Below are positions 2,846-50,786 of a stretch of 64,000 bases of DNA, piece by piece. Below the pieces are notes generated by a model. It was not told where the DNA came from. It did not search any database and was given only the letters and a program-made list of their open reading frames with translations. Position numbers and translations under genes: made by a program. The first letter of the stretch is position 1; every line of letters starts with the position of its first letter. Location: contig JBEKKK010000001.1 of NCBI GenBank assembly GCA_050010755.1, positions 1,312,001 through 1,376,000 of the forward strand, read 5' to 3'. The stretch is from Candidatus Bathyarchaeia archaeon (GTDB taxonomy: Archaea > Thermoproteota > Bathyarchaeia > Bathyarchaeales > Bathycorpusculaceae).

Positions 2846-2879
2846 CGATAGAAAAGGAATTGTCCAGATAGAGGTGATA

Positions 2880-3053
2880 TTGTTGCTGAGTATGAAGGAC
2901 GTTAGGAAGTGCAGAAACTCATTAGAACTGAACAATTTCATAGAAAAATACATTGCAGAGAGGAACTCGCCAAACGAGAGTTTCAACAGCACATATTGGA
3001 CTCTGTTCGAAGAGTGGAAAAAAACACTTAAGGATAAACCTTTACGAGCGTAA
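2880..3053 (+). CDS. Small hypothetical protein (57 aa)
   Basis: Open frame after GAGGTGA Shine-Dalgarno; co-oriented with the wHTH gene. Confidence 0.45.
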   Translation: MLLSMKDVRKCRNSLELNNFIEKYIAERNSPNESFNSTYWTLFEEWKKTLKDKPLRA

Positions 3054-3090
3054 AGATAGATCGATTACGCCCGATTACGTTTGACGAGAG

Positions 3091-3145
3091 TGTGAGGTTA
3101 AATGGGATGGTGGAGCATTAACCTTATTAACGATACTGTAAATGC
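3091..3145 (+). repeat. 55-bp imperfect direct repeat, copy 1
   Basis: 49/55 identical to 4740-4794. Confidence 0.9.
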
Positions 3146-3326
3146 GTTTAAAATTGAGCGTGCTTATTGCAAGAGCCACAAGCATTAATTTACTCGAAAC
3201 CCACGAGAGAGTTTTTGCGGATCAAAAATAGTTAATGCAGGGCCAAAAAGAAGCGCTGTGCAGGTTCGTTTGAGCACGACAAAATTAATAAGTGAAGACC
3301 ATTCTCTCCAGAATAGTGGTTCTTGA

Positions 3327-33584: not shown

Positions 33585-34169
33585 ATGAATGAAATGAGCA
33601 AGAGAAAACCGACTATAAAGATTCAGAACATTGTTGCTTCGGCAGCGCTCAATCAGAGGATCAGCCTGAAGAAGATTGTTGAAAAGTTTCCGCACGCTGA
33701 GTACAGTCCAAAAGTGTTTCCGGGGCTAGTTTTCCGGTTGAAGAAGCCTAAGACGGCCACGTTGATTTTTGAAACGGGTAAGATGGTTTGCACGGGGGCG
33801 AAGTCGGAGAAGGAAGCGATTCAAGCTGTGAACAAGGTGACTAAGGAGCTGAAAACCCATGGAATACCAATCGACAATAAACCGGCTATCACCATTCAGA
33901 ACATTGTTGCTTCGGCGGAGCTGAACGGGGAAATAGACTTGGAGAACGTTGTTTACAAGCTGAAGAGAGTGATGTATGAACCTGAACAGTTTCCGGGAGC
34001 CGTTTACAGAATGGACGTACCGAAGGTCGTGTTTCTCATATTCTCGGCTGGAAAACTGGTGTGCGTGGGCGCCAAGAAAGAAGGAGACGTCTATGAAGCG
34101 GTCGGCAAGCTCCAGGCATTATTAGAAGAACAAGAACTCATTTTCTACCCAGAAGAGAAACCTGCCTAG
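33585..34169 (+). CDS. tbp: TATA-box binding protein
   Basis: Two repeats IQNIVASA...YxPxxFPG...LIFxxGKxVCxGAK. Confidence 0.97.
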   Translation: MNEMSKRKPTIKIQNIVASAALNQRISLKKIVEKFPHAEYSPKVFPGLVFRLKKPKTATLIFETGKMVCTGAKSEKEAIQAVNKVTKELKTHGIPIDNKPAITIQNIVASAELNGEIDLENVVYKLKRVMYEPEQFPGAVYRMDVPKVVFLIFSAGKLVCVGAKKEGDVYEAVGKLQALLEEQELIFYPEEKPA

Positions 34170-34334
34170 AACCAAAACAATCCATCCTGCAAATTCGAGT
34201 TCTATTGGTTTTGAAGGCTCAATTAGCCTTCTGTTTCAACGTTCAAGTCTTTTGTATGGTTCGAGGGTTTTGAACAAAATGTACTTTAGTTTTGTTGTGC
34301 CTTAGTGGTTTCACATGGGCACGTCAGGATATGA

Positions 34335-35285
34335 GTGGCTTTGACCGGTAACAGTGCCGTTTGCAGCGTGTGTAGCCGGAGGAAGGCATTTTTCTTCAGG
34401 TCCTACTCTGGGATGAGTCTCTGCAAGAGGTGCTTCACCGAGTCTATTGAGGAAAAGACGAGGGCAACGATTGCGAAGTATCAGATGTTCAGGTTCGATG
34501 ATACTATAGCAGTGGCCGTTTCAGGCGGAAAAGACAGCGTTAGCCTGCTGCAGGTCTTGGCGAAGATAGAGCTGAGACATCCCAAGGCTCGGCTCGTCGC
34601 CATAACGGTTGACGAGGGGATCAAGGGATACCGAGACGAGGCTTTGAAGATAGCCGCGGAAAACTGTGAGAAGCTGGATGTGGAGCATTATGTGGTCTCT
34701 TTCAAAGAACTTTTCGGCTACACCTTCGATCAGATGGTGAAACGTCTGAAGGGCAAGGACGGCGCGAAGCTTACGCCTTGCGCGTACTGCGGTGTCCTGC
34801 GGAGAAAAGCCTTGAACACCGCCGCGAGGAAACTCGGCGCGGACAAGCTTGCGACTGCCCACACTCTGGATGATGAGGTGCAGACGATGCTTCTGAACAT
34901 TCTCCATGGAGACGTTTTGCGGATAGCAAAGGAAAAACCTGTTACGGATGAGGTGCATCCGAAGTTTGTGCCTAGAATAAAGCCTTTCTGCGAGATTCCT
35001 GAGAGAGAAACTGCGCTGTACGCGTACGTCAAGGGAATAAGATTCCAGAGCACGCCCTGTCCCTACGCTTCAGAGGCTTTGAGAAACGATGCACGAGCGA
35101 TGCTTAACAGGATGGAGGAGAAGCATCCTGGGATAAAATTCACGATTTTCAAGTCGATAGAGAAGATCAGGCCGGCGATAGAGGAAACCGCGAAGAAGGA
35201 AGGGCTCCGTGAATGTATCGAATGCGGAGAACCGACGACAGAAAAAATCTGTAGAACGTGCCAGCTGCGGAAACTTTTGAAGTGA
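34335..35285 (+). CDS. tRNA 2-thiolation protein (NcsA/TtuA/Ctu1, TIGR00269-like)
   Basis: PP-loop SGGKDS, CAYCGVLRR, CPY, terminal Zn fingers. Confidence 0.9.
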   Translation: MALTGNSAVCSVCSRRKAFFFRSYSGMSLCKRCFTESIEEKTRATIAKYQMFRFDDTIAVAVSGGKDSVSLLQVLAKIELRHPKARLVAITVDEGIKGYRDEALKIAAENCEKLDVEHYVVSFKELFGYTFDQMVKRLKGKDGAKLTPCAYCGVLRRKALNTAARKLGADKLATAHTLDDEVQTMLLNILHGDVLRIAKEKPVTDEVHPKFVPRIKPFCEIPERETALYAYVKGIRFQSTPCPYASEALRNDARAMLNRMEEKHPGIKFTIFKSIEKIRPAIEETAKKEGLRECIECGEPTTEKICRTCQLRKLLK

Positions 35286-35303
35286 TTCGAACCCTTGGCT
35301 GAA

Positions 35304-35522
35304 TTACGACGTGTTGAGGCCTCTCTCTTTTGTTGCGGCTTCGGTTTTGAGTTTGCGCAGCATGACCGAGGCTTCGTTGGCGGTGCTGGCTGAAGCCAGT
35401 GTCAATGCCTTTTGAAGTAGGATTGTCAAGCCACAGTGTGGACATGCCCTTGTCTTTTGGTCAGCTTTGGCGAGTAGAAGGCCTCCGCATCTGCTGCAAA
35501 CAACTACTAGCGTTGTAGCCAT
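35304..35522 (-). CDS. DUF1922-like Zn-ribbon protein
   Basis: CSRCG...KTRACPHCG. Confidence 0.7.
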   Translation of the reverse strand: MATTLVVVCSRCGGLLLAKADQKTRACPHCGLTILLQKALTLASASTANEASVMLRKLKTEAATKERGLNTS

Positions 35523-35590
35523 CGATGTCACTGATCGAAAGCCTTTTCCACGTTCGACTAGATAACGCTTAGTACTGAGAGGAAAGGGGC

Positions 35591-35959
35591 ATGAGCGACG
35601 AGCAAGAGGCCAAATCGAAATCGGCGTCGAGTCTGGTGCAGGCGGCGGTGCATTATTTCAAGAAGGACGGTTACAAGGTTGAAACGGACGCCACGACGTT
35701 TGAGGGTTTCAGCGGGGTCTCGAAAGTTTTTGATTTGATTGTTCAGAAGGGACGGGTTGAGCAGGGCGTCTGGGTTAGAGATTGGAACAGGACCATAGGG
35801 GTCAACGTGATTATAAACATTGACAAGGCCTCTGAGGATGTGGGGCTGGCCAGTCCCATCATTGTGGGGGAAAAATTCAGCGATCACGCAAAGTCTTATG
35901 CTAACCGAAGGAAGATCACGTTGCTCACGAAAAGGCAGATAACTCAGAGCCTTCGGTGA
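35591..35959 (+). CDS. Restriction-endonuclease-fold (Mrr-like) small protein
   Basis: GFSGVSKVFDL...FSDHAKSYA. Confidence 0.65.
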   Translation: MSDEQEAKSKSASSLVQAAVHYFKKDGYKVETDATTFEGFSGVSKVFDLIVQKGRVEQGVWVRDWNRTIGVNVIINIDKASEDVGLASPIIVGEKFSDHAKSYANRRKITLLTKRQITQSLR

Positions 35960-35965
35960 ACAGGG

Positions 35966-36556
35966 CTAGATTCTTAGGAACTCGTCGAGCCGACCTTCTT
36001 TTTCCAGTTTGCCTAGCCAATCAACAACGCCTATGCGGCACTTGTTGGGATCGGAGATCACTTCTAGTATCGCTCCGACGATGTCTTCTCCGCTCTTTCC
36101 TGTGAGGTCTAATTCGCATGTTTTTCCGTTTCCCACCGCCTTTATGGCATCCACGAGACACACGTCTAAGATTTCAGAGGCCAGGTTCTCCGTCATCTTG
36201 GGTTCAGAAAAGCCGCGCCGTCTCATAAACTCCCGCAACTCGAGAGGATCGCGCCTGAGCACGAACACGAGCGTGACAAGATTCTTTGGGACTACGTTGA
36301 CGGCGTAGTGCCCATCGACCACGACGTTTTCCTTGTCTGTTTTTTTGATTAGCTCGCGAATTCTTCTTGTCATCTTCGATTGGTTCACTATGACGGTGTC
36401 TCTTCTCTCATCTCTTCCCGAGGTCAGATGTTCTCGCAGAGCCAGGTCCGTCAGGTTGATGTACAAGGCATCAAGCTTGGCTTCAAGCAGACGTGCCGCC
36501 GAAGTCTTTCCAACACACGGCGTTCCGGTTATCAGGATAACGCGTTTAGACATCAT
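35966..36556 (-). CDS. Adenylate kinase, AK6/Fap7 type
   Basis: ITGTPCVGKT, DGH, ENLASEILD. Confidence 0.9.
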   Translation of the reverse strand: MMSKRVILITGTPCVGKTSAARLLEAKLDALYINLTDLALREHLTSGRDERRDTVIVNQSKMTRRIRELIKKTDKENVVVDGHYAVNVVPKNLVTLVFVLRRDPLELREFMRRRGFSEPKMTENLASEILDVCLVDAIKAVGNGKTCELDLTGKSGEDIVGAILEVISDPNKCRIGVVDWLGKLEKEGRLDEFLRI

Positions 36557-36644
36557 CGAGCAAACCTCAACTCGCTCTATTGAAGCGTTGGGCAAAAAAG
36601 GGTTTCCAAAATTCTTATTGCACACCTGTGTGCACTTCTATCTT

Positions 36645-36964
36645 GGGCTGGCGAGTTGGTGTGTGGCTTTCGAGCCTAACATCTGAAAGGCTTGAGGAAA
36701 CTCCGCCCACGCGTAGAATTGCAACGCTCGAAAGGGCGTAAGGCGAGAGCCTTGGCTACGGAGCAGAAACGAAACGTCCGCTCGGCAAATGCCGATGACA
36801 CATGCTAAGTTGTCGAGAATGCCAAGCGTGAAACGGTGAAACGGCCGTCCTGCAAGTGGAAAGGGCAAACAGACGCTGATGAAGCATCTACCCGAAGCGC
36901 GGGTAGCCCGATTAGCCGAATGCCACAAAAAACAAAAGGCGGGTTACGGCCAACACGCCAGCCC
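36645..36964 (+). ncRNA. rnpB: RNase P RNA
   Basis: GAGGAAACTCCGCCC (P4 5'), TGAAACGGC, ACAAAAGGCGGGTTA (P4 3'), P1 GGGCTGGCG/CGCCAGCCC. Confidence 0.95.
36940..36963 (+). repeat. attL core CGGGTTACGGCCAACACGCCAGCC
   Basis: Identical to 45492-45515; part of rnpB. Confidence 0.92.
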
Positions 36965-36976
36965 AAAATAAACCCC

Positions 36977-38134
36977 TTGGACGTCATAAACAACAAAAGT
37001 TCCGTCATAAACAACAAAACCACCACCACAAACAGCCAAAATTCCGTCGTGAACAACATTACTTCCCCAGCCATAGAATATTGGCTCAACGAATTAGCCA
37101 CAAAAAGCGAAACAACCAAGGAACTCTACCTGAAAAACTTCAAGAAATTTCTAGAATTTACAAACAAAACAGCCGACGAACTACTAGAACAACGCCAAGA
37201 AAACCAAACCAGCACAAACCCAAAAATCCAACGACTAATCGAGAGTCAACTCATCAAGTTCATAGCCACCAAAAGGAACGAAGGATTGTCACCAGCAACA
37301 CTTCAAACATACTTCGCCTCAGTCCGCTCATTCTTTGAAATCCATTACTACCCGCTACGAATGAGGCGCGGAGACTACCCAAGTGGCGAAAGTTTAGGAG
37401 TCAAAGCAGCAAACAAAGAGAACATACTCAAAGCGATAGAAAACAAAGCTAACCGCAACAAAACCACCATAAAAGCCGCCATCCTATTCCTAAAAGACTC
37501 AGGCCTAAGAATCAGTGACGCACGACTATTCAACTATGGCGATGTGAAAGAACAACTAGAACGCGGAGACGAATTCATTGAACTAGCACGAATAACACAA
37601 AAACAAAAAACCATAGCGAAGCCATTCATAGGCCCCGAAGCAATCCACGCACTCAAAACCTACCTACAAGAAAGAGAGCACGGTTCTAGACGAGTCCCAC
37701 CCGAAAAACTAACAGACAAAAGTCCATTGTTCCGCACATGGGAATCAACCAAAATCCAACGAATCCCTCGCAACTCCTTCTCTTCACTCGTACGCCAAAC
37801 ATTCCTAAGAATCAACGCACAACACACCACCGCACACAGCCTGAGAAAATACCTCCAAACAAACTTGGAAGCCGCAGGCGTCAACACAAACTGGATAGAC
37901 CAAATCCTAGGTCACAAACTCATCAACAGCCGAGACGCATACAGCAAACCAACCGACGAACAACTGCGAGAAGCGTACACAAAAGCATACAAGTTCATAC
38001 AAGTCTATCCAGAGTTAGACACACCGAAACCACAAGCAAACACAACACAACTCGAGACTAACAAACCAACAATACCAACGCTACAAGAATTCCAATTCAC
38101 CGTAACAATAGAAGGAAAAGAATACAAATCATAG
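36977..38134 (+). CDS. Tyrosine recombinase/integrase (start TTG 36977 or GTG 37049)
   Basis: GLRISD (R), HSLRK (HxxR), LGH, DAY (Y); SAM-like N-terminus. Confidence 0.93.
   Translation: MDVINNKSSVINNKTTTTNSQNSVVNNITSPAIEYWLNELATKSETTKELYLKNFKKFLEFTNKTADELLEQRQENQTSTNPKIQRLIESQLIKFIATKRNEGLSPATLQTYFASVRSFFEIHYYPLRMRRGDYPSGESLGVKAANKENILKAIENKANRNKTTIKAAILFLKDSGLRISDARLFNYGDVKEQLERGDEFIELARITQKQKTIAKPFIGPEAIHALKTYLQEREHGSRRVPPEKLTDKSPLFRTWESTKIQRIPRNSFSSLVRQTFLRINAQHTTAHSLRKYLQTNLEAAGVNTNWIDQILGHKLINSRDAYSKPTDEQLREAYTKAYKFIQVYPELDTPKPQANTTQLETNKPTIPTLQEFQFTVTIEGKEYKS
36982..37058 (+). repeat. 21-bp-period repeats CGTCATAAACAACAAAA
   Basis: Exact at 36982 and 37003; degenerate at 37024 and 37045. 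Confidence 0.8.
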
Positions 38135-38148
38135 ACTAAAAGGGAGCG

Positions 38149-38583
38149 CTAAGACAATGGCTTGATTGAGAGCGCGACGTAGAAAGGATTCAAAGGGTTA
38201 GCGGAAGTCGTGTATATGGTTGTGACATTAAATTGTATTCCACCGTAAATAGAAGACTCTGAACCTACGTTATAAGATGCATTAAGATAAACTGGAAAAT
38301 TGAAAACGTTCTGGTTCTCAGGAAAAGCTGAATCATTAACGTATGAACTTGTTTCAACAGAAATCCAATTCGACTGGCCATACTGCCAATCGAAAGCATA
38401 GACTGTTCTTACGTTCTCTCTTTTATCAGTGTAAGAAGCAGGAACTCCAGAATAGACATTTAATTCAGTGTATCCTAGATTGGATTTTGAGAAGGGATGA
38501 GTAATTATTACACCAAGCAGGAATGCCACACATGCAATAACTATCACCCAAGCTATTATTCTGTTTCTATCCATCTTCCCCAA
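38149..38583 (-). CDS. Membrane-anchored hypothetical protein
   Basis: N-terminal TM, N/S/Y-rich ectodomain. Confidence 0.7.
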   Translation of the reverse strand: MGKMDRNRIIAWVIVIACVAFLLGVIITHPFSKSNLGYTELNVYSGVPASYTDKRENVRTVYAFDWQYGQSNWISVETSSYVNDSAFPENQNVFNFPVYLNASYNVGSESSIYGGIQFNVTTIYTTSANPLNPFYVALSIKPLS

Positions 38584-38731
38584 TTCATCAAGCTATGTCC
38601 TTTAAAATAAACCTTTCACCATCATTCAACAAGTACGGGCGTGAAGATAACTTCTTTTTGGCGCGCGCTAAATCATAGCTCAGACACAATAAATCGCTAA
38701 ACATATATTCCTATAATTAGACGTTTTAACC

Positions 38732-39544
38732 ATGACTGATAACGCTGCTGAGGCAATATTAGACGATATGGAGAAGCAAGGTTTCCCACTTGAGATACGA
38801 GTAACCGAGATGTTAAAAGCCCATGGTTGGAGTGTCTACAATCAAGAACCCTACTTTGACAGAAATACAAACAAACAGAGAACAATAGACATCGAAGGCA
38901 TAAGAAGCATTGACTTACCTAAAGGAGAATGGGTATTTCAGGTACGGCTCATTATAGAATGCAAAAAATGCAGTAAACCATGGGTATTTTATGTTTCTGA
39001 TATAAGTAGAGATGAAATAAGAAACGAGCTTCCCTTTTACACCAAAATTTACTCTGACAGCTCAAACCAATTAGATTTTCCTAAAAACCAAATCCAGACC
39101 GATGACTACGTCCCTCAAATCTTGTTCAAAAAAGAGCTTGAGCAACTTATTTTTGAAAAATTAGCGCGTATTGCATATGAACCCTTTACAGATGGCAAAG
39201 GAAACAGCATTCGTAGAGCACGAACACAAGTCTGCAACGCAATCATAGACCTTAAGCGAGATCTAGCTCAAAGTATGGGAGTGGAAATTCCACATTATAT
39301 GCTGTTTAAACCTATAATCATTCTTGACGGTCAATTATACACATATCAAGAAGAGAACCTCATTAAGAAAAAGGGACTCTACTATTACGTAAGATTTTAT
39401 GATGAAACATTCATCATCGAAGTGGTGACTATAGGTTTTCTCAACGAATACCTCACAAAAATTGAGAACAATATCAATAACTTTCTGAGAACACAAGAAG
39501 CGCGCACACTACAAGCGATAGAAACAAAAAAGGCAGCCAACTAG
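38732..39544 (+). CDS. PD-(D/E)XK-like nuclease-fold protein
   Basis: GFPLE...RTIDI...LIIECK. Confidence 0.65.
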   Translation: MTDNAAEAILDDMEKQGFPLEIRVTEMLKAHGWSVYNQEPYFDRNTNKQRTIDIEGIRSIDLPKGEWVFQVRLIIECKKCSKPWVFYVSDISRDEIRNELPFYTKIYSDSSNQLDFPKNQIQTDDYVPQILFKKELEQLIFEKLARIAYEPFTDGKGNSIRRARTQVCNAIIDLKRDLAQSMGVEIPHYMLFKPIIILDGQLYTYQEENLIKKKGLYYYVRFYDETFIIEVVTIGFLNEYLTKIENNINNFLRTQEARTLQAIETKKAAN

Positions 39545-39755
39545 AAAAGAAACAAAGCAACCAGCAGACCTGCTCAACTAACTTGCGAAAATGCTCACGG
39601 CCAAAGCATAAAACAACACTATCAACGCTCTAGCGCGGCTTTTGGCTCGCACTCGCTTCGCATCGTGCTCGCATCACCCACATTACGCGCGCCTAAGGAG
39701 CTCGTAGAAACGATTAAATAGGAAACAATTTAAGGTGAAATGGAGTGATAAAACC

Positions 39756-40796
39756 ATGAGCGGAGCGGAAGAGTCTAGAAAACAGAGACCCTTTCCAAGG
39801 AATACAGTCGAAGATGCCCTAAGAATTGCGAAAACAATTCTAGACCTTAACAATGGCAAACCCATGAAACGAATTTTTATTGCAGATCACTTGAAAATAA
39901 GACCCGATAGCACCAATTTCAAGTATTTGATTAGTGCCTCTTTTAGGTACGGTCTTACGCAAGGGAATGAGAAATCTGAATTCATCAGCCTGACACCCTT
40001 AGGCGAATCGATAGTGAGAGCAAAGGATGCAGAAAAGACGGCATTTCTCCAAGAGGCTGTTCAAAAGATACCTGTATTCCACAATTTCTATGAAAGGTAT
40101 CGAGATGCTAAACTGCCTACGGATGAGTATGCAAAGAAACTTCTAAAAGACGAGTTTCAGGTTCCCTCAGAGCATTTGGATGAATGCCTAAACATATTAA
40201 TCACGAATGGAAGATTCGCAGGACTAATAAGAGAAGTAGCAGGAGCCACTCGTGTTGTTTTTGAGACGGCTACTTCAGCTACTCCTGTAGTCCCGCAAGA
40301 GTCAGAAGCCCAAGGAGAAGAAGGAGCGGGAGAGGAAAAGGAAGAGAAAGCCGAGCTACTCAAGGAGCAAATCAAGAAGCCACGGGTATTCATTTCTCAC
40401 AGCAAAAACAAGAAAATAGTCGACCAGATAAAACAGATTTTGGATTTTGGACAGTTTGAATATGTAGTTGCAGAGGAAACAGAAACTACAGCGATTCCTA
40501 TTCCTGACAAAATCTTTGGATTGATGAGAGACTGTGATTGCGCAATAATAAATGTAAGCGCAGATGAGCAAGAGAAACGAGCCGATGAAACCTATGGAAT
40601 AAATCCCAACGTTCTCGTGGAAATTGGCGCCGCTTTCCTCAAGTATAACAAGAAAGTGATTTTACTCGTGGACAAGAGAATAAACTTGCCTTCGAATTTG
40701 CAAGGGCTATACCGAAGCGAGTATGAAGGCGATGAACTCACCTTTACCACGGCAATGAAATTACAAAAAGCACTCACGGATTTTAGGAAACTGTGA
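39756..40796 (+). CDS. wHTH-like N-terminus + TIR-like nucleotide-binding domain
   Basis: RVFISHS...NPNVLVEIG...LPSNLQG. Confidence 0.8.
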   Translation: MSGAEESRKQRPFPRNTVEDALRIAKTILDLNNGKPMKRIFIADHLKIRPDSTNFKYLISASFRYGLTQGNEKSEFISLTPLGESIVRAKDAEKTAFLQEAVQKIPVFHNFYERYRDAKLPTDEYAKKLLKDEFQVPSEHLDECLNILITNGRFAGLIREVAGATRVVFETATSATPVVPQESEAQGEEGAGEEKEEKAELLKEQIKKPRVFISHSKNKKIVDQIKQILDFGQFEYVVAEETETTAIPIPDKIFGLMRDCDCAIINVSADEQEKRADETYGINPNVLVEIGAAFLKYNKKVILLVDKRINLPSNLQGLYRSEYEGDELTFTTAMKLQKALTDFRKL

Positions 40797-41354
40797 TTGA
40801 AGGTTGAAAGAATGTGGCATGAATATCCGATTCCGACAGATTTTGAGAACCAGAAAAGAATCATTAGGGCGTTGAGGGAATGGATAAAGCAACTTGAAGC
40901 TGACAACTTGATCTCTGGATTCGCGTTTAATCATTATTCCTCAAATCCTGAAGTGCCTGATGAACTTCGAGTCAGATTTCAATACTCTAATGAAAATAAC
41001 CGCGAGGGCGTAGAAAATCAATTAGAAACCGAAGTTAAAGAGATGCTACCGAATTATGTGATGCAAGAGAGGGAATGGGGCTCAGACACAACCGATAGGC
41101 ATATTCTCCAAGCCTACGAACTCGGAAGTAGATGGTCTTTTCTAGCTTGGGAACTAATCGAAAAGGGACGTTTTCCAGCGGAGTATTTCACGCGCCCAGA
41201 GTTCCAGTTCCATTTTAACCACGGAGTAATGAACTCTCTCGGTATTCCGAAAATCCCTGACGAACTAAACATTCACATAAACAACATAATGGATGCTACC
41301 AATTCGCGAACAAAAGAATCTCTAATAAGATGGTTGCAGGAACATCTTGCCTGA
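40797..41354 (+). CDS. Hypothetical protein resembling lantibiotic dehydratase C-terminal/thiopeptide-type domain
   Basis: LISGFAFNHY...ELRVRF...HGVMNSLGI; abuts TIR stop codon. Confidence 0.5.
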   Translation: MKVERMWHEYPIPTDFENQKRIIRALREWIKQLEADNLISGFAFNHYSSNPEVPDELRVRFQYSNENNREGVENQLETEVKEMLPNYVMQEREWGSDTTDRHILQAYELGSRWSFLAWELIEKGRFPAEYFTRPEFQFHFNHGVMNSLGIPKIPDELNIHINNIMDATNSRTKESLIRWLQEHLA

Positions 41355-41522
41355 ACTCGACAATCCTTGGAATCCAATCCTTCCTTTCTCCCCACGCACC
41401 ATCTCCTTTTGCTGAAAAACTAATTATGGATTACTAGCGCGCGCCACCCAACAAACGAAAAACATTAAGCATACTCTCGCCAAAGAGGAATTAACAATAA
41501 CGACATCTGGTAGGTTACCAAA

Positions 41523-42254
41523 ATGACAATTGAGAATTGTGCATATTGCAGGGGAACAGGTAAAGATCCCAACACAGGCCTTATTAGCAAATTTAGGCCC
41601 TGTCCAGTTTGTAATGGGCACGGTGAGCGTACCATTGAGGTTCCCATAGACCAACTGAAGCACTGTCCTTATTGCAGTGGAACAGGTAAAGATCCCAACA
41701 CAGGCCTTATTAGCAATTATGAGCCCTGTCCAACTTGCGGAGGTTGGGGTCGAATTGCGAGATCTACATGCGATTCTTCTAAAAAGAAGGAAGAACCAAG
41801 TCCAGATTTGGGCAAGAGCAAACTTCAATTCTCAAATAGGATATTCATCGTTCATGGAAGAGACAGATTGCCAGCACTTGAACTCAAAGTGCTTGTTGAG
41901 GACAAGTACCCGATAGAAGCTATCCTTTTAGAAGAAAAGGCTCATCAAGGCAAGACTCTTGTTGAGAAATTGGAGAAATACTCTGATGTGAATTATGCGT
42001 TCATAATCATCACTCCAGATGACGTCGGATCATTGAAAGGCGAGCCTCTCAAAGAAAGGGGGCGCCAAAATGTTATTTTTGAATGGGGAGTTTTTCTAGG
42101 CAAAATAGGAAGGAGTAACACGTGCCTTCTAATCAAAGGAGATGGGGAAATTCCTTCAGATTTGCACGGAGTCGGATTCTACAGATTCAATGAGAGCGTA
42201 AAAGAGTGTTTTCTAGACATAGATAATGAACTCAAAGGAGCCAAAATAGTCTAG
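41523..42254 (+). CDS. DnaJ-type CxxCxGxG Zn finger + TIR-like (CAP12/Pycsar-type) domain
   Basis: 4x CxxCxGxG; IFIVHGRD, TPDD, RQNVIFEWG, IPSDLHG. Confidence 0.88.
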   Translation: MTIENCAYCRGTGKDPNTGLISKFRPCPVCNGHGERTIEVPIDQLKHCPYCSGTGKDPNTGLISNYEPCPTCGGWGRIARSTCDSSKKKEEPSPDLGKSKLQFSNRIFIVHGRDRLPALELKVLVEDKYPIEAILLEEKAHQGKTLVEKLEKYSDVNYAFIIITPDDVGSLKGEPLKERGRQNVIFEWGVFLGKIGRSNTCLLIKGDGEIPSDLHGVGFYRFNESVKECFLDIDNELKGAKIV

Positions 42255-42477
42255 CGCGCGCTCAAGTCACTTCGCTCCTTTCGCCGAAACTAAACCGTGC
42301 ACTATCCAAGAAATAGACGGAATCAGACTATGCAGAAAACGCAAATGAACTCAAACCTCCTCTTTCTCTAATTACCAAAACAGAGCGTCAGTTAGTCTCG
42401 TTGCCATCTGGTGGCAATCAGAAGGTTTTAAGAACTAGTTCCAAGGATGCTATAAGTGAGTTCTAGGAGACAATAGC

Positions 42478-42882
42478 ATGGAAAAAGAACTGCTCTTCGA
42501 AGCCAAAGAGAACGCCACCTCATTTAACATCAAGGAATTCAGCCCAGAAGGCGCGAAGATCGACATCACCCTTACGGGAAAAATCAACGGAAAGGTGAAA
42601 GGGACAATCATAACCACACACACTGTCCTCATGAAGCCTGACGGCACATCGAAAATCGATCACAGATCAGTCATCTTCAGCAACGGCGAGCCAATCTTCG
42701 TAATGGGAACTGGCATGGGGAAAATCGTGAACCCCGCTCCTGTGCGGGACGTTGAGGAAGACCTGACATTCCAGACACCATCTCAAAAACTGGCATATCT
42801 CAATACGACTAAGGGCTGGTCAAAGGGTCCCTTCAACCCCGAAACGGGCGAATACAACTTCAAGGTCTACGCCGTCAAGTAA
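42478..42882 (+). CDS. Hypothetical beta-rich protein
   Basis: AGGAG SD; clean 134-aa ORF. Confidence 0.7.
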   Translation: MEKELLFEAKENATSFNIKEFSPEGAKIDITLTGKINGKVKGTIITTHTVLMKPDGTSKIDHRSVIFSNGEPIFVMGTGMGKIVNPAPVRDVEEDLTFQTPSQKLAYLNTTKGWSKGPFNPETGEYNFKVYAVK

Positions 42883-43143
42883 CGCGCAACACAACTTTTC
42901 AAAAAACGCAAATAACCCTCCTTTTTCTATGACCAACAGAACCAACACACTTCATCGCGCGCGCTAATAGCATTTTAAACAAGAATCAATTTGGCTCGTG
43001 AGCCTTCGGCTCACTCGCCCGTTCCAGACGATACGCCAAAAATGCCGATACGCTCAAAAACTGCTTGCACAAGTCTAAGCGAGGCGCGCGCTAGTTACCC
43101 TAATGTTTATCCTTTTGACAGATCATTAGTAGAAGTGAATAAT

Positions 43144-43692
43144 ATGGAAAAGAAAGCTGTACTTATAACAACCTTGTGCGCTATGATTGTAGTTGTCATC
43201 TTTTTCCAGTTCATCCTGTTCAACACTTCGCTACCAAAAGACTACACGACATATTACAGCGAGTTCAACAAGACTCCCACGCTTGCATACAACTACTCCT
43301 TGTCTCCTCCAGTTTCCGTATACCAAGCGTTGTTGATAGCTCTAAATAGCCGATACTGGAACCGAGAATCCCTCGAAAATTTCAGCGTCTACATCGAGCT
43401 TGACTACTGGGCATACTTTACGAACCTTTCCCCTCCGAACGGAGTGTTGGAATTGGGTGGCGCAACTTACAGGTCGACTGGCAAACCCATAAGCGGAACG
43501 GCTATAATAAATACGGTGACACAACCGCCCGCGGATTGGTTACCTCAACAAATCGACAACATCACTTACCGATACGTCTGGACAATCAACGTCCAATATG
43601 TGATCCATCCCAATGATAAGATTCCTATTGTGCCTAGCTTGCCTTTTCAGTTTCAAGTTGACGCCGCAACCGCAGAATTAATTGAGCCATAA
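43144..43692 (+). CDS. Membrane-anchored exported protein (PepSY-like tail)
   Basis: N-terminal TM after ATG 43144; C-terminal YVWTI...VDAATAELI. Confidence 0.65.
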   Translation: MEKKAVLITTLCAMIVVVIFFQFILFNTSLPKDYTTYYSEFNKTPTLAYNYSLSPPVSVYQALLIALNSRYWNRESLENFSVYIELDYWAYFTNLSPPNGVLELGGATYRSTGKPISGTAIINTVTQPPADWLPQQIDNITYRYVWTINVQYVIHPNDKIPIVPSLPFQFQVDAATAELIEP

Positions 43693-43960
43693 ACACGTTA
43701 AGCGTGCACGAAACGAAAAATCAAGAAAACGCCCAAGTCCTCGGCGACATAAGCCTTTCCCCTTCGCTCCGCTCAGGGTGCGCCTCCTTCGCAACTTTTT
43801 ACTGATGCAAAATATCCCACAAGGTCGCGCGCGCTACAAAAAAAGGCGAAATGCCAATCGAACGCCAAAGGAACAGCAACAATAACGCCACAAACAACCC
43901 GCTATACTCTCGCTAACAGGAACGAATTAACTAACACACGCTACAACAACAGAACACACA

Positions 43961-44034
43961 ACAGAACAAACAACGACAGAACAAACAACGACAGAACAAA
44001 CAACGACAGAACAAACAACGACAGAACAAACAAC
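43961..44034 (+). repeat. Tandem repeat (ACAGAACAAACAACG) x ~5
   Basis: Four perfect 15-mers plus a 14-nt fifth copy; non-coding. Confidence 0.95.
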
Positions 44035-44233
44035 AAACAACAGTAAACAACAGAACGCTATAAACACCCGCCGTTTTAACGCTCAGTAAAGTAACGCGGA
44101 AATCCAACAGAGCAACAAGCCGCCCGCACAGCGCGCGCTACTGACAGCTCAAGCAAGCCATCAACATCAACAAACCAAGCAAAGCTAGAAGCATTAGATG
44201 CTTCGCAAACTAATTTAGGAACAACCATGCGCG

Positions 44234-45031
44234 CTATTTCTTCGAATTGTGTATTAGATAATTGACAACAAAACCAAGTGCCATGAATGTAAACCCAACA
44301 GCATCTACCAATATACCTATCGTTTGGTAAGGATATACTCGGCGCGGAATCGATAAAACATCGGCGTGACTATATTGCATCTCGAAATAGGATGCCGCAA
44401 CCAAGCCAATCGCCAAAAGAAATATCCCCAAAATCAACAATACGTTGCTTCTCGCTAGCGCCCGCGCGCTGGTTGCCTCATTAACTAAGAAGGCACACAG
44501 AAACATTGCTATTGCAGGGTAAACAAGGTAGTAGCCTAGTTGATATCCTGCGAAAAATATATTGCCCGCCTGTATGAGGGCGCTCACGCACGTCATCAGA
44601 ACGACAACTAGTAGGCTAAGAAGAACTGGTGCAAGCAGTAATGTTTTTCTTTTGAATTTGATTGAAACCAAGCCTAGGACTAACGTGAGAAGTTGAGCTA
44701 TAAACATCATTGGTATAAACACCGACGCTGAATCAAAAGTAGATTCAACGTAATTGCTCGCCCAGTAATTATAGAACCATACCGTCTGCGCTAGCGTGCG
44801 CGAGCCAGAACTATAGAAAAAGAATTGGGTGGCCCTAGTCATGTACGACGAGTAATAGTTTGACCAGTTTTGACCAGACACAAAGCCATCAGACACCTGG
44901 ACACCATACCATTGAAGATAGAAGAACGGCAAAATGAAAGAAAATAGAAAAAGGAGGCATCCCACAACTGTGAATGTCTTTCTAAGGGTACCGCCAGTCC
45001 AATGTCCAACTGTTTTCTCAAGATAACTCAA
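44234..45031 (-). CDS. Multi-pass hypothetical membrane protein
   Basis: About 6 TM segments. Confidence 0.7.
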   Translation of the reverse strand: MSYLEKTVGHWTGGTLRKTFTVVGCLLFLFSFILPFFYLQWYGVQVSDGFVSGQNWSNYYSSYMTRATQFFFYSSGSRTLAQTVWFYNYWASNYVESTFDSASVFIPMMFIAQLLTLVLGLVSIKFKRKTLLLAPVLLSLLVVVLMTCVSALIQAGNIFFAGYQLGYYLVYPAIAMFLCAFLVNEATSARALARSNVLLILGIFLLAIGLVAASYFEMQYSHADVLSIPRRVYPYQTIGILVDAVGFTFMALGFVVNYLIHNSKK

Positions 45032-45283
45032 GTTAATCTAAAAGAAATATTACTAGAGCACCTTAAAAGGGCTATTGTTAAGAACAGCATTGCCAAAATC
45101 ATGTCATGCGCGCGCTCTTCGCATTCTTTTATCTTCTTTTCACTTATCCCCAAACCCACCAGATGGAATGATTGGGCGTATATTCATAAGCCGTTACAAG
45201 CGCACGCTCCCCGCAGTCCTAAAAAGTTGCTCAGTCGGGAAAGGCATATTGTCGCCTCGTCAAAGACGAATTAGGAATGTGGG

Positions 45284-45526
45284 TTGAATTACATGACAAA
45301 CCAAACAAACGAAACCCAAAAAAGAACATGTAAAGAAATAGAACACGGGAGACTGAGGACAGAAATAGAAATTCCCAAACTCCCAGAAAGGGCAAAAACT
45401 ATGAATGAAGAAACCAAACCCGAAACCAAGGATCAACCACAAACCAAAAACCAACAAGAAACACCAAAACCAGAATTACTTGTACTAAAGACGGGTTACG
45501 GCCAACACGCCAGCCTTTTTCGCTAA
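45284..45526 (+). CDS. Small hypothetical ORF running through attR
   Basis: A/C-rich codon style like the integrase. Confidence 0.35.
   Translation: MNYMTNQTNETQKRTCKEIEHGRLRTEIEIPKLPERAKTMNEETKPETKDQPQTKNQQETPKPELLVLKTGYGQHASLFR
45492..45515 (+). repeat. attR core (duplicated rnpB 3' end) followed by TTTTT
   Basis: Identical to 36940-36963. Confidence 0.92.
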
Positions 45527-45761
45527 CCCGCCTCATTTTTACTTCCTCTTCGCGCGCGCTAATCTTCCCATTCTTCGATAATATTTACCAAACGGTTTCA
45601 CCTTGGACTATGTTGGCGCAGGAGTTTAAGGGAATTCTGGCACTGATAAAGCACAGTGTGCTTTAGAAGGCTGTACAAATATTGCAAGTTCGACCGCGCG
45701 CGTTTCAGAAATACTATTATCTGGGTTTGATCTGTCCTTTTCCAACTGGGAGATATGTGCT

Positions 45762-46034
45762 ATGAATATTGGGGTTTGGGAAGTTGGGGTACGCGTTGGC
45801 TTGGTGTTGGCCACCGGCTTGTTGTTTGCAGTCATGTTTTCGGCTTATCGCCGCGCAAAAGGCCGCAAAATGCTGTTGATCACTACAGGCTTTGGAGTGT
45901 TCTTTGTAGATGGATTGATCTCACTGCCTGAGCTAGTCAACGAAACGTATGCGATGGCCATGACTGAAGAAATGCATATGCTCATTCAGATAATAGGCCT
46001 TGTATTCATTTTGATTGGTATCTTGCAGGAATAG
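45762..46034 (+). CDS. Small 3-TM membrane protein
   Basis: SAYRR...LLITTGFGVF; upstream of HTH gene. Confidence 0.7.
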   Translation: MNIGVWEVGVRVGLVLATGLLFAVMFSAYRRAKGRKMLLITTGFGVFFVDGLISLPELVNETYAMAMTEEMHMLIQIIGLVFILIGILQE

Positions 46035-46040
46035 TCCGAC

Positions 46041-46598
46041 ATGTTCAAGAACGAGATTCTGGAGAACGAAAGAAGACGCAAGATATACGCACTGATAGAG
46101 GCCAATCCAAGCGTTCATCTTAGGGAACTGCAGAGGATGATGAATATGCCTCTGGCCACGTTGGAGTATCATCTGGATTACATGTTGCGTAAGAAAGTAC
46201 TTTTCGCCGAATCGGATGCGTATCACAAGCGATATTACACGAAGCCTGTTGACGCGGCTGACAAGAAGGTACTTTGTTCACTTAGACAGACCAGAATGCG
46301 GGAAATCATCCTCATAGTCCTCGCAAACACCAAACCCAAATACCAGTTTCTATCAGACTGCATGAAAATTCCTCACTCAACTCTCTCATTTTACCTCAAA
46401 CACCTGATCGACGACAATATACTGGCGAAAGAAAGAATCGGCTACGACACATTTTACACCGTACGGGACGAAGATCGAATCGTGAGGTTGTTGGTAGCCT
46501 ACAAGTCAAGTTTTCTGGACAAGATCGTGGACAGAACTCTGAAAACATGGATAGAAACGCGATTCCGCAGTGAACCTGAAAACGCTCAGGCGACCTAG
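46041..46598 (+). CDS. Double winged-HTH (ArsR-like) regulator
   Basis: RRKIY..I..NP.VHLREL...TLEYHL; STLSFYLKHL. Confidence 0.85.
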   Translation: MFKNEILENERRRKIYALIEANPSVHLRELQRMMNMPLATLEYHLDYMLRKKVLFAESDAYHKRYYTKPVDAADKKVLCSLRQTRMREIILIVLANTKPKYQFLSDCMKIPHSTLSFYLKHLIDDNILAKERIGYDTFYTVRDEDRIVRLLVAYKSSFLDKIVDRTLKTWIETRFRSEPENAQAT

Positions 46599-46700
46599 CC
46601 CAGCATTTGTACTAGTCCCATCCAACATTCGTCCGACTCTTCTTATAAAGGCGCGCGCTTGTGTGGTGACAATTAAGGAAACGTATTTAGAGAATAGGGG

Positions 46701-47807
46701 GTGAAAAAGGTGGAAAGAAAAATCTTGGCAATTTTGAGCATTGCAGTTGCAATCTTCGCGGTATTTGCAGTGGCGAGTGTAGCAAGTGCAGGACTTAAAA
46801 ATGTTGGAGCCATCTACACCATCGATAATGCCGCAGCAGGAAACAACGTCCTATACTACAGCAGAGCAGCAGACGGATCAATCACATATGTTAGTTCTTT
46901 CTCGACTAATGGGTTGGGAACAGGAACGAAACTTGCAAGCCAAGGCGCAGTGGTCCTTACAGAAGATGGGCGCTTCTTGCTTGTAGTTGACGCTGGAAGC
47001 AACGAAATCTCAGTTTTCAAGGTGCAAAGCAACGGATTGACTTACTCGAGTAAGGCGGGTTCCAATGGGACTATGCCGATAAGCTTAACCGTCTACGAGA
47101 ACTGGGTGTATGTGCTGGATGCTGGCGGATCTGGAAACATAGCAGGATTCACGCTGAGCAAATCTGGCGTATTGACCTACATACCCGGCTCGAATCAGCC
47201 TCTAAGCGGTGCATCTACACCTTCGCCTGAGCAGATAGGGTTCAGCCCTGACGGAAACGTGTTAGTCGTAACAGAAAAAGGCACTAACACCATCGATACG
47301 TACATGGTCGGCACTAATGGAGTAGCCAGCGCCCCGACAACTCATGCCTCCAATGCTTTTGGACCATACGGATTTGCCTTCACTGATGATGACAAACTGG
47401 TTCTTAGCGAAGCAGCAAACAATACATTGTCTTCATACATCATTTCTGACCAAGGTGACTTGAGAACTATCAGCGGTGCTATGCCAACTTTTGGCAATGC
47501 ACCCTGCTGGGTCACAATAAATGATAAGGGCAGCTTTGCCTACACGACCAACGCGCATGGGGGAACTATATCGACGTTCTCAATCTCGTGGAATGGGGGC
47601 ATAACCTTGCTAAGTTCTGTAGCTGCGACAATCAATGTTCCGGCACTTGACATGGCTTTCAGCCATCATAGTCAGTTCCTTTACGTGCTCAATGGCAACA
47701 GCCCTGCAGGCATCACAGGATTCAAAGTGTACCCAGATGGAAGTTTGTCGCAGGTAACATCAGTGAGCGGAATCGCTGGATCTGCTGCAGGATTGGCGGC
47801 ATCTTAA
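46701..47807 (+). CDS. Exported lactonase-family beta-propeller protein
   Basis: Signal peptide; repeated blades DGRFLLVVDAGSNEISVF, FSPDG, APCW. Confidence 0.85.
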   Translation: MKKVERKILAILSIAVAIFAVFAVASVASAGLKNVGAIYTIDNAAAGNNVLYYSRAADGSITYVSSFSTNGLGTGTKLASQGAVVLTEDGRFLLVVDAGSNEISVFKVQSNGLTYSSKAGSNGTMPISLTVYENWVYVLDAGGSGNIAGFTLSKSGVLTYIPGSNQPLSGASTPSPEQIGFSPDGNVLVVTEKGTNTIDTYMVGTNGVASAPTTHASNAFGPYGFAFTDDDKLVLSEAANNTLSSYIISDQGDLRTISGAMPTFGNAPCWVTINDKGSFAYTTNAHGGTISTFSISWNGGITLLSSVAATINVPALDMAFSHHSQFLYVLNGNSPAGITGFKVYPDGSLSQVTSVSGIAGSAAGLAAS

Positions 47808-48119
47808 GAGCTGCAAAAACAAAAAATCTAACTCTCTCCTCTTTTTTAGCATATGGGAAAGATGTAAGACATAGTGCGTCAATGTTTTGTTGATATAGCT
47901 GTTCATTATTCTCTCAAGCTTCTGGATTCTGACGCGCTCTCGAGTGTTGCTAAAGGAGATGCAGAACGTTTTCTTTGAAAGCTTCAAGCGTTGGAGTTGT
48001 TGGTGCACATTGGAAGATTATGTAAGAGATTCCAGTTTCGTCTTTCTCGAGGCGCGCGCGTTTTGCATACGTTGACTCACCAGAAAGCTTATGCATCAAT
48101 CCCGTGATTTTGATACTAA

Positions 48120-50210: not shown

Positions 50211-50786
50211 CTACGTTGGCAGAGGGGGAAAAGGTTGGGGTGGTATTATTGCCTCAACGGGCTTTGGCACGCGCTCTCTAGTTAGTGCGGCAAACATCAT
50301 AATCGCGGCAACCAAGGCCAGCCAAAAACCGAAAGATAGGTACGACGAGTAATCCATGGATATTCCAAGGTAGCCGTATGAACCACTGGAGAACAAACCT
50401 GCTCCTGTTGGGATCCCCGTAACCAAAGACCCATTTGAAATCTGGCTTTGCAATCCCGCAGCGAATATAATAATCGAAAACAAAGCAAGTATCCCGCCAA
50501 GTGAAAGCACAATCCTTCTTCCATTAGCAATGACACTACCTGCCAAACCCAGCAAGCCGCCTAACACCACAAATGCCAAGGCAATCGAACAATACCAAGG
50601 AAGATTCGTTGAAGCGGATAATGATATACCTGTTATGGTCACTCTCGTTTGGTATAGGTACAGAGCAACCTGATCAGAGAGGTTCATTCCCATGCCTGAA
50701 CTCGAAATGCCCATAGCCCACCACGGTAACACCAAGCTAATGAAAGCCAATATGCCTCCGATAAAACCTGAATAGTTAATTCTCAA
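50211..50786 (-). CDS. Hypothetical membrane protein
   Basis: SLVLPWW...LSFGFWLALVAA. Confidence 0.75.
   Translation of the reverse strand: MRINYSGFIGGILAFISLVLPWWAMGISSSGMGMNLSDQVALYLYQTRVTITGISLSASTNLPWYCSIALAFVVLGGLLGLAGSVIANGRRIVLSLGGILALFSIIIFAAGLQSQISNGSLVTGIPTGAGLFSSGSYGYLGISMDYSSYLSFGFWLALVAAIMMFAALTRERVPKPVEAIIPPQPFPPLPT

Follow-up and report, generated by a model that had tools for sequence, protein, structure and literature searches.

The stretch of DNA analysed here, which we call the window, comprises 64,000 nt from a Candidatus Bathyarchaeia archaeon (assembly GCA_050010755.1, contig JBEKKK010000001.1, positions 1,312,001 to 1,376,000 of the forward strand) and harbours rnpB, the gene for RNase P RNA. 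Directly behind rnpB lie an integrase gene, a series of open reading frames (ORFs) and, 8.55 kb further on, a second copy of the last 24 bp of rnpB. The G+C content of the DNA between the two copies is 0.37-0.47, versus about 0.50-0.53 in the left flank. Based on these observations, we propose that 36964-45515 is very probably a mobile island integrated at the 3′ end of rnpB, with the two copies of the 24-bp sequence as its attachment (att) sites. Positions refer to the window, and the features that delimit the island are as follows.

36648 to 36963, + strand: rnpB, RNase P RNA gene (Rfam RF00373, with an extension of helix P1 read from the sequence)
36940 to 36963, + strand: attL, left copy of the exact 24-bp repeat, equal to the rnpB 3′ end
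36982 to 37065, + strand: 21-nt direct repeat in three copies (CGTCATAAACAACAAAAG-like), located between attL and the start codon of the integrase, found by repeat search
37049 to 38134, + strand: type-A tyrosine recombinase (integrase) of 361 amino acids (PF00589, phrog_1)
45492 to 45515, + strand: attR, right copy of the exact 24-bp repeat
45516 to 45560, + strand: native rnpB trailer, with TTTTT at 45516-45520 and 45537-45541

The 24-mer CGGGTTACGGCCAACACGCCAGCC has two exact copies in the window, at 36940-36963 and 45492-45515, both on the + strand and 8552 bp apart from start to start; a match was obtained in 0 of 100 shuffles. The whole genome, 2.19 Mb in 8 contigs, likewise contains the sequence exactly twice. 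The Rfam model RNaseP_arch (RF00373) matches 36651-36958 over its full length, with 196.9 bits against a cut-off of 84, and as this is the one match in the genome rnpB is single-copy. Positions 36645-36653 (GGGCTGGCG) can be read from the sequence to pair with 36956-36964, so that helix P1 and the repeat share the same end, at 36963, and the repeat is thus the 3′ end of rnpB and covers the 3′ strands of P4 and P1. A TTTTT run stands directly 3′ of the right copy, with a second one 21 nt further, whereas on the + strand after the left copy the first run of at least four T is encountered at 38655, 1.69 kb on and past the integrase gene. An earlier note, made from the sequence of the window alone, had described the exact repeat of the rnpB end 8552 bp downstream, its identity with the P4 and P1 strands and a TTTTT tract that follows the right copy instead of the gene, and each of these observations is borne out. 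rnpB is intact at attL, and the island is bounded by direct repeats identical to its 3′ end. No tRNA gene was found in the 64-kb window.

The integrase gene is part of a long ORF (36836-38134), whose most likely start is a GTG at 37049, 86 nt after the att site. The product matches PF00589 over residues 123-303 (58.5 bits against a cut-off of 27.1, E 9.3e-16) and the PHROGs integrase family phrog_1 (4.6e-23). In alignments with relatives of two integrase types, here called A and B, residues R154, H263-x-x-R266, H289 and Y298 are invariant, and K185 and K191 are invariant among type A; we take these to be the catalytic residues from their positions and the pattern familiar for the family. The profile match and the alignments thus agree with the previous reading of an intact integrase, with R, HxxR, H and Y in place, just inside the left copy. 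Profiles of N-terminal SAM-like domains remained below threshold (PF13495, 22.9 bits against a cut-off of 27; PF02899, 19.2 bits against 22.3), and the best match in the PDB is the P. abyssi XerA-like protein 4a8e (E 1.6e-4). An assignment as archaeal XerA (NF040815) was rejected, with 73.5 bits against an equivalog cut-off of 220. A split integrase of the SSV type was also rejected for type A: the ORF at attR (45284-45526) reads the att site in another frame and, by frame arithmetic, would stop 3 codons after att in a circle. In type B, an ORF runs in frame from inside rnpB through the att site in genomes G002, G004 and G021, and does not do so for the second integrase of G003. The 21-nt repeats between attL and the integrase start (three matches in the window versus 0.04 expected, none elsewhere in the window) are candidate arm-type or regulatory sites.

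Is rnpB a landing site in this genome alone? A scan with an alignment of four type-A integrases, made on one genome per species, returned 34 loci, part of which come from the same genomes as an order-level homologue search. For 16 of the 25 Bathyarchaeia homologues with at least 40% identity, a full-length rnpB stands less than 100 nt upstream; five others, two of them at contig starts, follow a copy of the rnpB 3′ end, and four have neither. The adjacency of integrase homologues to rnpB that the earlier note had proposed to look for is therefore a property of most homologues in this range. At 30% identity or below, rnpB was found at none of nine loci, and in the order-level search several homologues in this range adjoin tRNA genes. 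A second copy of the rnpB end follows 1.6-3.8 kb past the first in five loci (L054, L055, L057, L068 and L072), and thus delimits small elements. In addition, the family was surveyed with RF00373: 121 genomes of the same family gave 100 matches above the cut-off, and 89 of these plus the G003 locus, 90 in total, were examined, the other 11 lying at contig ends. At least 1 kb of downstream sequence makes 82 of the 90 assessable. A tyrosine recombinase ORF stands no more than 200 nt from rnpB in 28 of the 82 (22 on the same strand, 6 on the opposite strand), and 54 have none; within the first 1.5 kb of these 54 loci PF00589 matched 0 of 127 ORFs. By BLASTP the 28 rnpB-linked integrases divide into 4 of type A, 20 of type B and 4 of type C. 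Type B consists of two subclades that are about 32% identical to each other, and type C, whose proteins have about 411 amino acids and carry a zinc ribbon at the N-terminus, shares 41% identity with one of them. Type A matches B or C only with E of at least 0.02, which means that at least two integrase lineages without detectable pairwise similarity occupy the same place. Assembly breaks within 450 nt downstream of rnpB affect 19 of 101 loci, as would be expected of a variable or repeated region. These data support rnpB as a recurrent, family-wide landing site in Bathyarchaeia and not a one-off.

Several arrangements seen in the course of these surveys are recorded here in their own right. Type-C integrase genes (L124:72-1304, L131, L141, L145, L161) are convergent with rnpB and stop about 26 nt after it, behind the native trailer. 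Two full-length inverted rnpB copies (176-473, + strand; 2861-3161, − strand) flank a type-A integrase near a contig end in L053:176-3161, an arrangement that could reflect an inversion between att sites, a duplication or a misassembly. Partial copies of the rnpB 3′ part, 220 nt in L019:9819-10956 (G021:C1) and about 60-80 nt in L022:13986-15200 (G020:C1), precede integrase genes on contigs without a full rnpB, and may be detached parts of arrays or secondary sites. In the window itself, 545-664, far from rnpB, encodes the C-terminal 40 or so residues of a type-B integrase (up to 46% identity, E 4e-8) and is probably the remnant of another integrated element.

If the island was inserted into the rnpB end, the DNA to the right of attR should once have followed the gene. 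In unoccupied loci of other genera the trailer after rnpB is conserved, with the consensus CTATAAATAACACGCCAGGTTTTTACTTGCG. The 45 nt after attR agree with these trailers at 18-30 of 41-50 positions (44-66%), the best matches being G168 (30/47) and G013 (27/41), whereas the flank of attL agrees with the same trailers at 8-15 of 48-50 positions (16-31%). Since the attR flank matches the trailers and the attL flank does not, we interpret the DNA right of attR as the original rnpB trailer. Integrase-free relatives, in which rnpB is joined directly to an attR-like trailer, look like empty sites as judged by sequence comparison. The prediction of an empty-site allele in relatives thus holds in part: rnpB is joined at the repeat to a similar trailer, but in other genera only, none having been found in the same species or genus. 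The presence of TTTTT close to rnpB was rejected as a general marker of empty sites, being found within 25 nt in 16 of 54 unoccupied loci versus 5 of 22 same-strand occupied ones; it is informative only for the trailer of this genome.

Further evidence comes from assembled Logan contigs of four public sequencing runs, a form of read evidence in which rare variants are dropped. The runs that contain the sequence are peat and wetland metagenomes. Run X2, which belongs to a study different from the likely source, has contigs identical to 36934-41582, 41687-43990 and 44206-48000, and its 5.6-kb contig bridges the attR junction with 0 differences. Runs X11 and X12, with small shares of the sequence, yielded scattered short pieces only. 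A metagenome contig (L166) is 100% identical over 40589-46982; it may stem from the same source and shows no variant arrangement.

A number of observations weigh against an insertion at rnpB or leave it less well anchored than one would wish. The left junction is reached in X2 from 6 nt to the left of attL and is not bridged by at least 31 nt on both sides; of the two junctions that the earlier note wanted spanned by reads, attR is therefore covered and attL is not. Neither a joint from 36963 to 45516 nor a joint of a circle of the whole island is among the joints listed for the contigs of the four runs, so that the anticipated empty-site and circle junctions did not appear. A comparison of a 14.3-kb region with 40 relatives found no unoccupied site in the same species or genus, and the three genomes of the same genus, G002, G003 and G004, all carry other islands at rnpB. 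In this comparison matches stop at the rnpB end, and in G002 and G003 the right-hand neighbours of attR have their counterparts on other contigs. The gene neighbourhood after rnpB differs in every genus (tblastx of 8 relatives against the genome). Because gene order to the right of attR is not shared with the rnpB neighbourhood of relatives, the argument from empty sites depends on the approximately 45 nt of the trailer. Nevertheless, the exact repeats, the intact integrase, the displaced trailer, the lower G+C content and the situation in relatives together support the original notion of an integrative element that uses rnpB as its attachment site.

How would such an element insert without destroying an essential gene? 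In our proposal the element would bring a copy of the rnpB 3′ end with it, which keeps rnpB intact at attL, and the host copy of this end, together with the native T-rich trailer, would be displaced to attR. Tyrosine recombinases usually act on two core-type sites arranged around a 6-bp overlap. Here GGCGGGTT (36938-36945) and AACACGCC (36952-36959), compared by eye, form an inverted repeat with 7 of 8 positions matching around the 6 bp ACGGCC, and we infer that this is the recombination core, ACGGCC being the putative overlap. Natural variation among genomes falls mostly in that 6-bp spacer. The recombination mechanism, the order of events and the present-day mobility suggested here are deduced from sequence comparison and should be taken as a working proposal. 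The trailer holds AACCCGCC at 45525-45532, which in exact reverse complement gives GGCGGGTT, the sequence with which the att core starts, and many relatives have at the same spot AACACGCC(AG), a direct copy of the P1 3′ strand; these could represent an old att scar or a structure of the trailer.

Repeated integration at rnpB would build tandem arrays, and two sister species, G002 and G003, have structures of this type: behind rnpB come a type-B integrase and three more copies of the rnpB end (23-24 nt), the arrays spanning about 19 kb in G002 and about 30 kb in G003 with at least 4 att copies each. The last copy in both arrays again precedes an integrase gene, which is fragmented. G023 has three att copies. 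The spacer variant is uniform within a genome, ACGACC throughout in G003 and ACGGCC in 4 of 4 copies in G002, where one copy deviates one base past the spacer (GCCGAC versus GCCAAC) and another further along (ACACGTC versus ACACGCC). A motif, ATTACT(t/a)a(g)gCTAa(a/t)G (45474-45491 in the window), stands directly to the left of attR-type copies in L016, L017, L027, L057 and L072. In the form ATTACT..CTAAAG it accompanies the att site in about 10 of the 15 copies seen, in both A- and B-type elements, and in the frame of ORF 45284-45526 it reads as the peptide ..LL.LK.GY...

The interior of our island seems to bear traces of such an array. Its remaining segments and ORFs are the following.

38149 to 38583, − strand: ORF of 144 amino acids with a hydrophobic N-terminus, no family above threshold (Pfam, PADLOC, PHROGs, NCBIfam)
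38732 to 39544, + strand: ORF of 270 amino acids, unnamed family, no match in Pfam, PADLOC or PHROGs
39735 to 40796, + strand: TIR protein of 353 amino acids with a DUF7226-like N-terminus and a C-terminal CAP12/Pycsar-type TIR domain (Pfam, PADLOC)
40797 to 41354, + strand: ORF of 185 amino acids, no family; a relative (66% over 89 amino acids) lies downstream of rnpB in G017
41523 to 42254, + strand: TIR protein of 243 amino acids with a DnaJ-type CxxCxGxG zinc finger and a CAP12-type TIR domain (Pfam, PADLOC)
42304 to 42357, + strand: type-B integrase remnant consisting of the last 14 codons (42304-42345), stop and 3′ flank (blastn and tblastn to the G004 integrase)
42478 to 42882, + strand: ORF of 134 amino acids, no family, paralogue elsewhere in the genome
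42991 to 43692, + strand: ORF of 233 amino acids with a transmembrane segment, no family, two paralogues elsewhere in the genome
43735 to 44139, + strand: segment like the right part of the first rnpB-linked G003 island (blastn, 86.9% over 405 nt)
44136 to 45204, no strand: 1069-bp segment with a 265-amino-acid membrane ORF (44234-45031, − strand), absent in G003 and skipped in a contig of run X12
45205 to 45491, + strand: right-end segment with ORF o80 (45284-45526) and the motif ATTACTTGTACTAAAGA left of attR, matching the right end of the G003 island at 91-94% identity

From 42304 onward the DNA translates to IQEIDGIRLCRKRK followed by a stop, and 13 of these 14 residues are those of the C-terminus of the G004 type-B integrase (tblastn). 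At the nucleotide level, 42304-42357 and the 3′ end of this integrase gene share 88.9% identity over 54 nt, with E 2e-13 among the loci compared and 1.3e-10 in the genome search. Moreover, the first G003 island, which has a type-B integrase, resembles two segments of the window, 43735-44139 and 45199-45515, in its right end, at 87-94% identity; for o80 tblastn gives 88% over 76 amino acids. The 1069 bp in between, 44136-45204, are a gap in G003 and are skipped precisely in the X12 contig, at a joint from 44135 to 45205 with 4 nt shared. Because a type-B integrase tail is combined with a right end like that of the type-B island of G003, we interpret the island as most likely a collapsed array, in which a type-A element has become fused to the remainder of a type-B one. 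The type-A element would extend from 36964 to about 42300 and include the integrase, ORFs and the two CAP12-type TIR proteins, and the remainder of the older type-B element would occupy approximately 42304-45515. An internal deletion would have taken the middle att site together with most of the type-B integrase gene, leaving only its last 14 codons. Run X5 contains a near-identical strain at about 200x, which covers 34000-36926, with 4 differences in 2780 nt of the left flank, and 42368-48000. No X5 contig matches 37269-41938, and one contig of the same depth holds the right module together with 20 nt that match the window up to 36963. This weakly suggests that the strain possesses the type-B module but lacks the type-A one, as predicted for the precursor, the shorter side of the joint being 20 nt.

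Against a collapsed array it can be said that the type-B remnant is just 54 nt long, that the X5 contig has 1129 nt unlike the window before 42368 and that the motif beside attR is common to A- and B-type elements, so that the right end cannot be assigned to type B on this ground. The 8.55 kb might accordingly be one intact element that arrived by a single type-A integration, the type-B tail and the G003-like end being mosaic pieces acquired beforehand. Such a history would fit the presence of only two att copies, both perfect, the occurrence of the motif beside attR in the type-A elements L057 and L072, and the highly mosaic nature of elements in the population, with many short shared segments and joints. 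We nonetheless regard it as unlikely: the other delimited type-A elements measure only 1.6-3.8 kb, an integrase 3′ end with its stop and flank in the orientation of rnpB is the leftover expected of a deletion inside a tandem array, and X5 seems, on its slender joint, to possess the right module without the left between the same flanks.

Whether composite or not, the island could be a fixed relic of an ancient integration that no longer excises, its repeats persisting as part of rnpB or being too young to have diverged. We consider this a possibility, albeit a doubtful one. The lack of an excision or circle junction among the contig joints listed would fit it, as would a composite with mismatched arms; among relatives, 5 of 18 same-strand type-B integrases beside rnpB are fragmented, and G017 retains only a 66-amino-acid type-A remnant. 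Conversely, the integrase ORF of the window is intact with all catalytic residues, and attR, which lies outside the gene and is free of the constraint on rnpB, is still identical at 24 of 24 positions. Near-identical strains appear to differ in the left module, and the content of the islands is wholly different between species of one genus, which implies turnover. A far more trivial explanation, that the repeat stems from assembly or binning or from a segmental duplication of the rnpB end without an integrase, seems to us extremely improbable. The genome is indeed a metagenome assembly, and in many relatives contigs break close behind rnpB, as described above; yet in a separate run contigs without a difference from the window cross attR and enter the island from 6 nt to the left of attL, dozens of independent assemblies show this architecture again, and the integrase is situated exactly at the junction. 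Thus, we retain a mobile island integrated at rnpB, most likely in the form of a collapsed array.

What does the island carry? Capsid, packaging, replication and transfer genes were not found among its ORFs (12 searched with Pfam, 10 with PHROGs and PADLOC, 7 with NCBIfam), in agreement with the earlier statement that replication, virion and conjugation genes are not recognisable, and the island would therefore depend on other means for its transfer. The term cryptic cargo island that had been applied to it can be refined, in that the cargo is defence-like, with two CAP12-type TIR proteins. The 353-amino-acid protein matches PF10137 (7.2e-17), PF23871 (4e-7) and PADLOC PDC-S35 (2.7e-9); the 243-amino-acid protein matches PF10137 (3.5e-30), PF00684 (3.6e-9) and, strongly, PDC-S35 (2.2e-48), and a 58%-identical relative of it resides in the rnpB array of G002. 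The cargo may thus serve in anti-virus defence, the TIR proteins being putative effectors. The 270-amino-acid ORF falls into unnamed clusters of the Atlas at 0.97, and a TM of 0.40-0.45 to Mrr_cat/NERD clusters gives a faint lead towards Mrr/NERD-type nucleases. In the sister arrays the cargo comprises another CAP12-type TIR protein, HEPN_Swt1 with DUF5343, Mrr, Schlafen/AlbA_2, an N6/N4 methylase, a Cas4-like nuclease, Holliday-resolvase-like nucleases and AAA_15/21, by family assignment a defence-type assortment.

Other parts of the island and its surroundings have counterparts elsewhere. The 134-amino-acid ORF at 42478-42882 has its paralogue at G000:C1:1192290-1192691, and the ORF at 42991-43692 has paralogues with 42-46% identity at G000:C1:1184890-1185384 and 1128809-1129357. 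A segment of about 80 nt (42980-43059) is conserved at 85-94% inside the rnpB-linked islands of G002, G003 and G021, and many joints of run contigs fall at 42995-43042, resembling a shared module boundary. The left edge of the 1069-bp segment, whose 265-amino-acid membrane ORF matches no family, is formed by a multi-copy repeat of about 100 nt (44137-44236). This repeat, which could mark one end of a small mobile insertion, matches contig ends in G021, G004, G020 and G002, and each sequencing run has it on 6-7 contigs. Beyond the island, the ORF at 50211-50786 (− strand) has about 80% protein identity to the integrase-adjacent ORF of the first G003 island (L017:16200-16781), a likeness which suggests that the DNA right of attR may include older island material.

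What are the implications of an integrase gene behind rnpB? The orientation of integration would place the integrase directly behind rnpB on the same strand. With the TTTTT terminator displaced by 8.5 kb and no T-run in the integrase gene, transcription from the rnpB promoter could, on sequence grounds, plausibly continue into the integrase. The highly expressed rnpB transcript would then extend at its 3′ end through the integrase gene, and maturation of the RNase P RNA would need 3′ processing. In 12 of the 22 same-strand occupied loci the first TTTTT lies 907-949 nt downstream, just behind the integrase ORFs, whose ends are at 933-970. We tentatively speculate that at least two dissimilar integrase lineages have converged on rnpB and built tandem defence-type arrays there, and that integration rewires transcription so as to couple the integrase to an essential housekeeping promoter; taken as a whole this scenario is conceivable, though we would not expect it to hold in every part.

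To our knowledge, Bathyarchaeia are an abundant uncultured class of archaea with almost no known mobilome. If the present reading is true, rnpB provides a simple landmark for mobile and defence islands in this class. Two integrase lineages with a target of about 24 bp in a universal single-copy gene would be candidate tools for archaeal genome engineering. Additionally, insertion in the 3′ strand that forms part of the catalytic core (P4/P1), combined with the displacement of the terminator, bears on how the 3′ ends of RNase P RNA are made, and it becomes testable whether the element exploits the rnpB promoter.

tRNA and tmRNA genes are the classic landing sites of integrative elements. Williams is said to have described in 2002 how genomic islands and proviruses occupy the 3′ part of tRNA and tmRNA genes by means of tyrosine integrases. 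The element at rnpB shares with these islands an attP copy of the 3′ end of a stable RNA that restores the gene, the flanking direct repeats, the integrase beside attL and the tandem re-use of the site, and differs from them in its target, the RNase P RNA gene. It also resembles defence islands at hotspots and the PDC-S35 system in its two CAP12/Pycsar-type TIR proteins and in the defence genes of the sister islands; no CBASS or Pycsar cyclase or sensor partner was found next to the TIR genes with Pfam and PADLOC. Among islands mapped by TIGER/Islander, 33.8% are in tRNA or tmRNA genes, and the accessible part of that paper does not mention rnpB (PMC12424338). Islander, as described there, covers by design tRNA and tmRNA genes only (PMC12424338), and mappers restricted to these genes cannot find elements at rnpB. 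In the accessible portions of the literature, whose supplementary target tables might list rnpB, we came across no description of this gene as an att site; there it figures only as a phylogenetic or typing marker or as an annotated RNA. The accessible text of a 2021 review of archaeal tyrosine recombinases likewise mentions neither RNase P, rnpB nor Bathyarchaeota.

Elements from three other settings are also close in kind. For Thaumarchaeota, integrated elements were assigned to tRNA genes in 39 cases (57%), to intergenic regions in 15 and to 3′ ends of protein genes in 14 (PMC6563490). These elements have in common with ours a tyrosine recombinase, att repeats, a cryptic nature in some cases and arrays that arise by re-use of the site, and differ in that the terms RNase P and rnpB are absent from the text as accessible (PMC6563490). 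SSV-type integrases likewise belong, as far as the available text describes them, to the tyrosine recombinases of archaeal integrative elements and have stable RNA genes as targets, but attP is located within their own ORF, so that integration splits the gene (PMC7253208); the type-A integrase is not split. A parallel for the target is phage phiEf11, whose att site lies in ffs, the 4.5S/SRP RNA gene of Enterococcus faecalis, and was presented in 2025 as a novel class of att site (PMC12540744); the RNA targets given as known in the accessible part of that paper are tRNA/tmRNA and csRNA genes, not that of RNase P RNA (PMC12540744). As reported there, phiEf11 too employs a non-tRNA stable RNA gene as attB, with an identical core of 27 nt, similar in size to the one described here, and with attP near the integrase (PMC12540744). 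It is a temperate phage of a bacterium (PMC12540744), whereas the island at rnpB has an archaeal host, no virus genes, several integrase lineages and tandem arrays. The mechanism would thus be that of familiar islands, and what appears to be new is the class of target and a hotspot that extends across a whole lineage.

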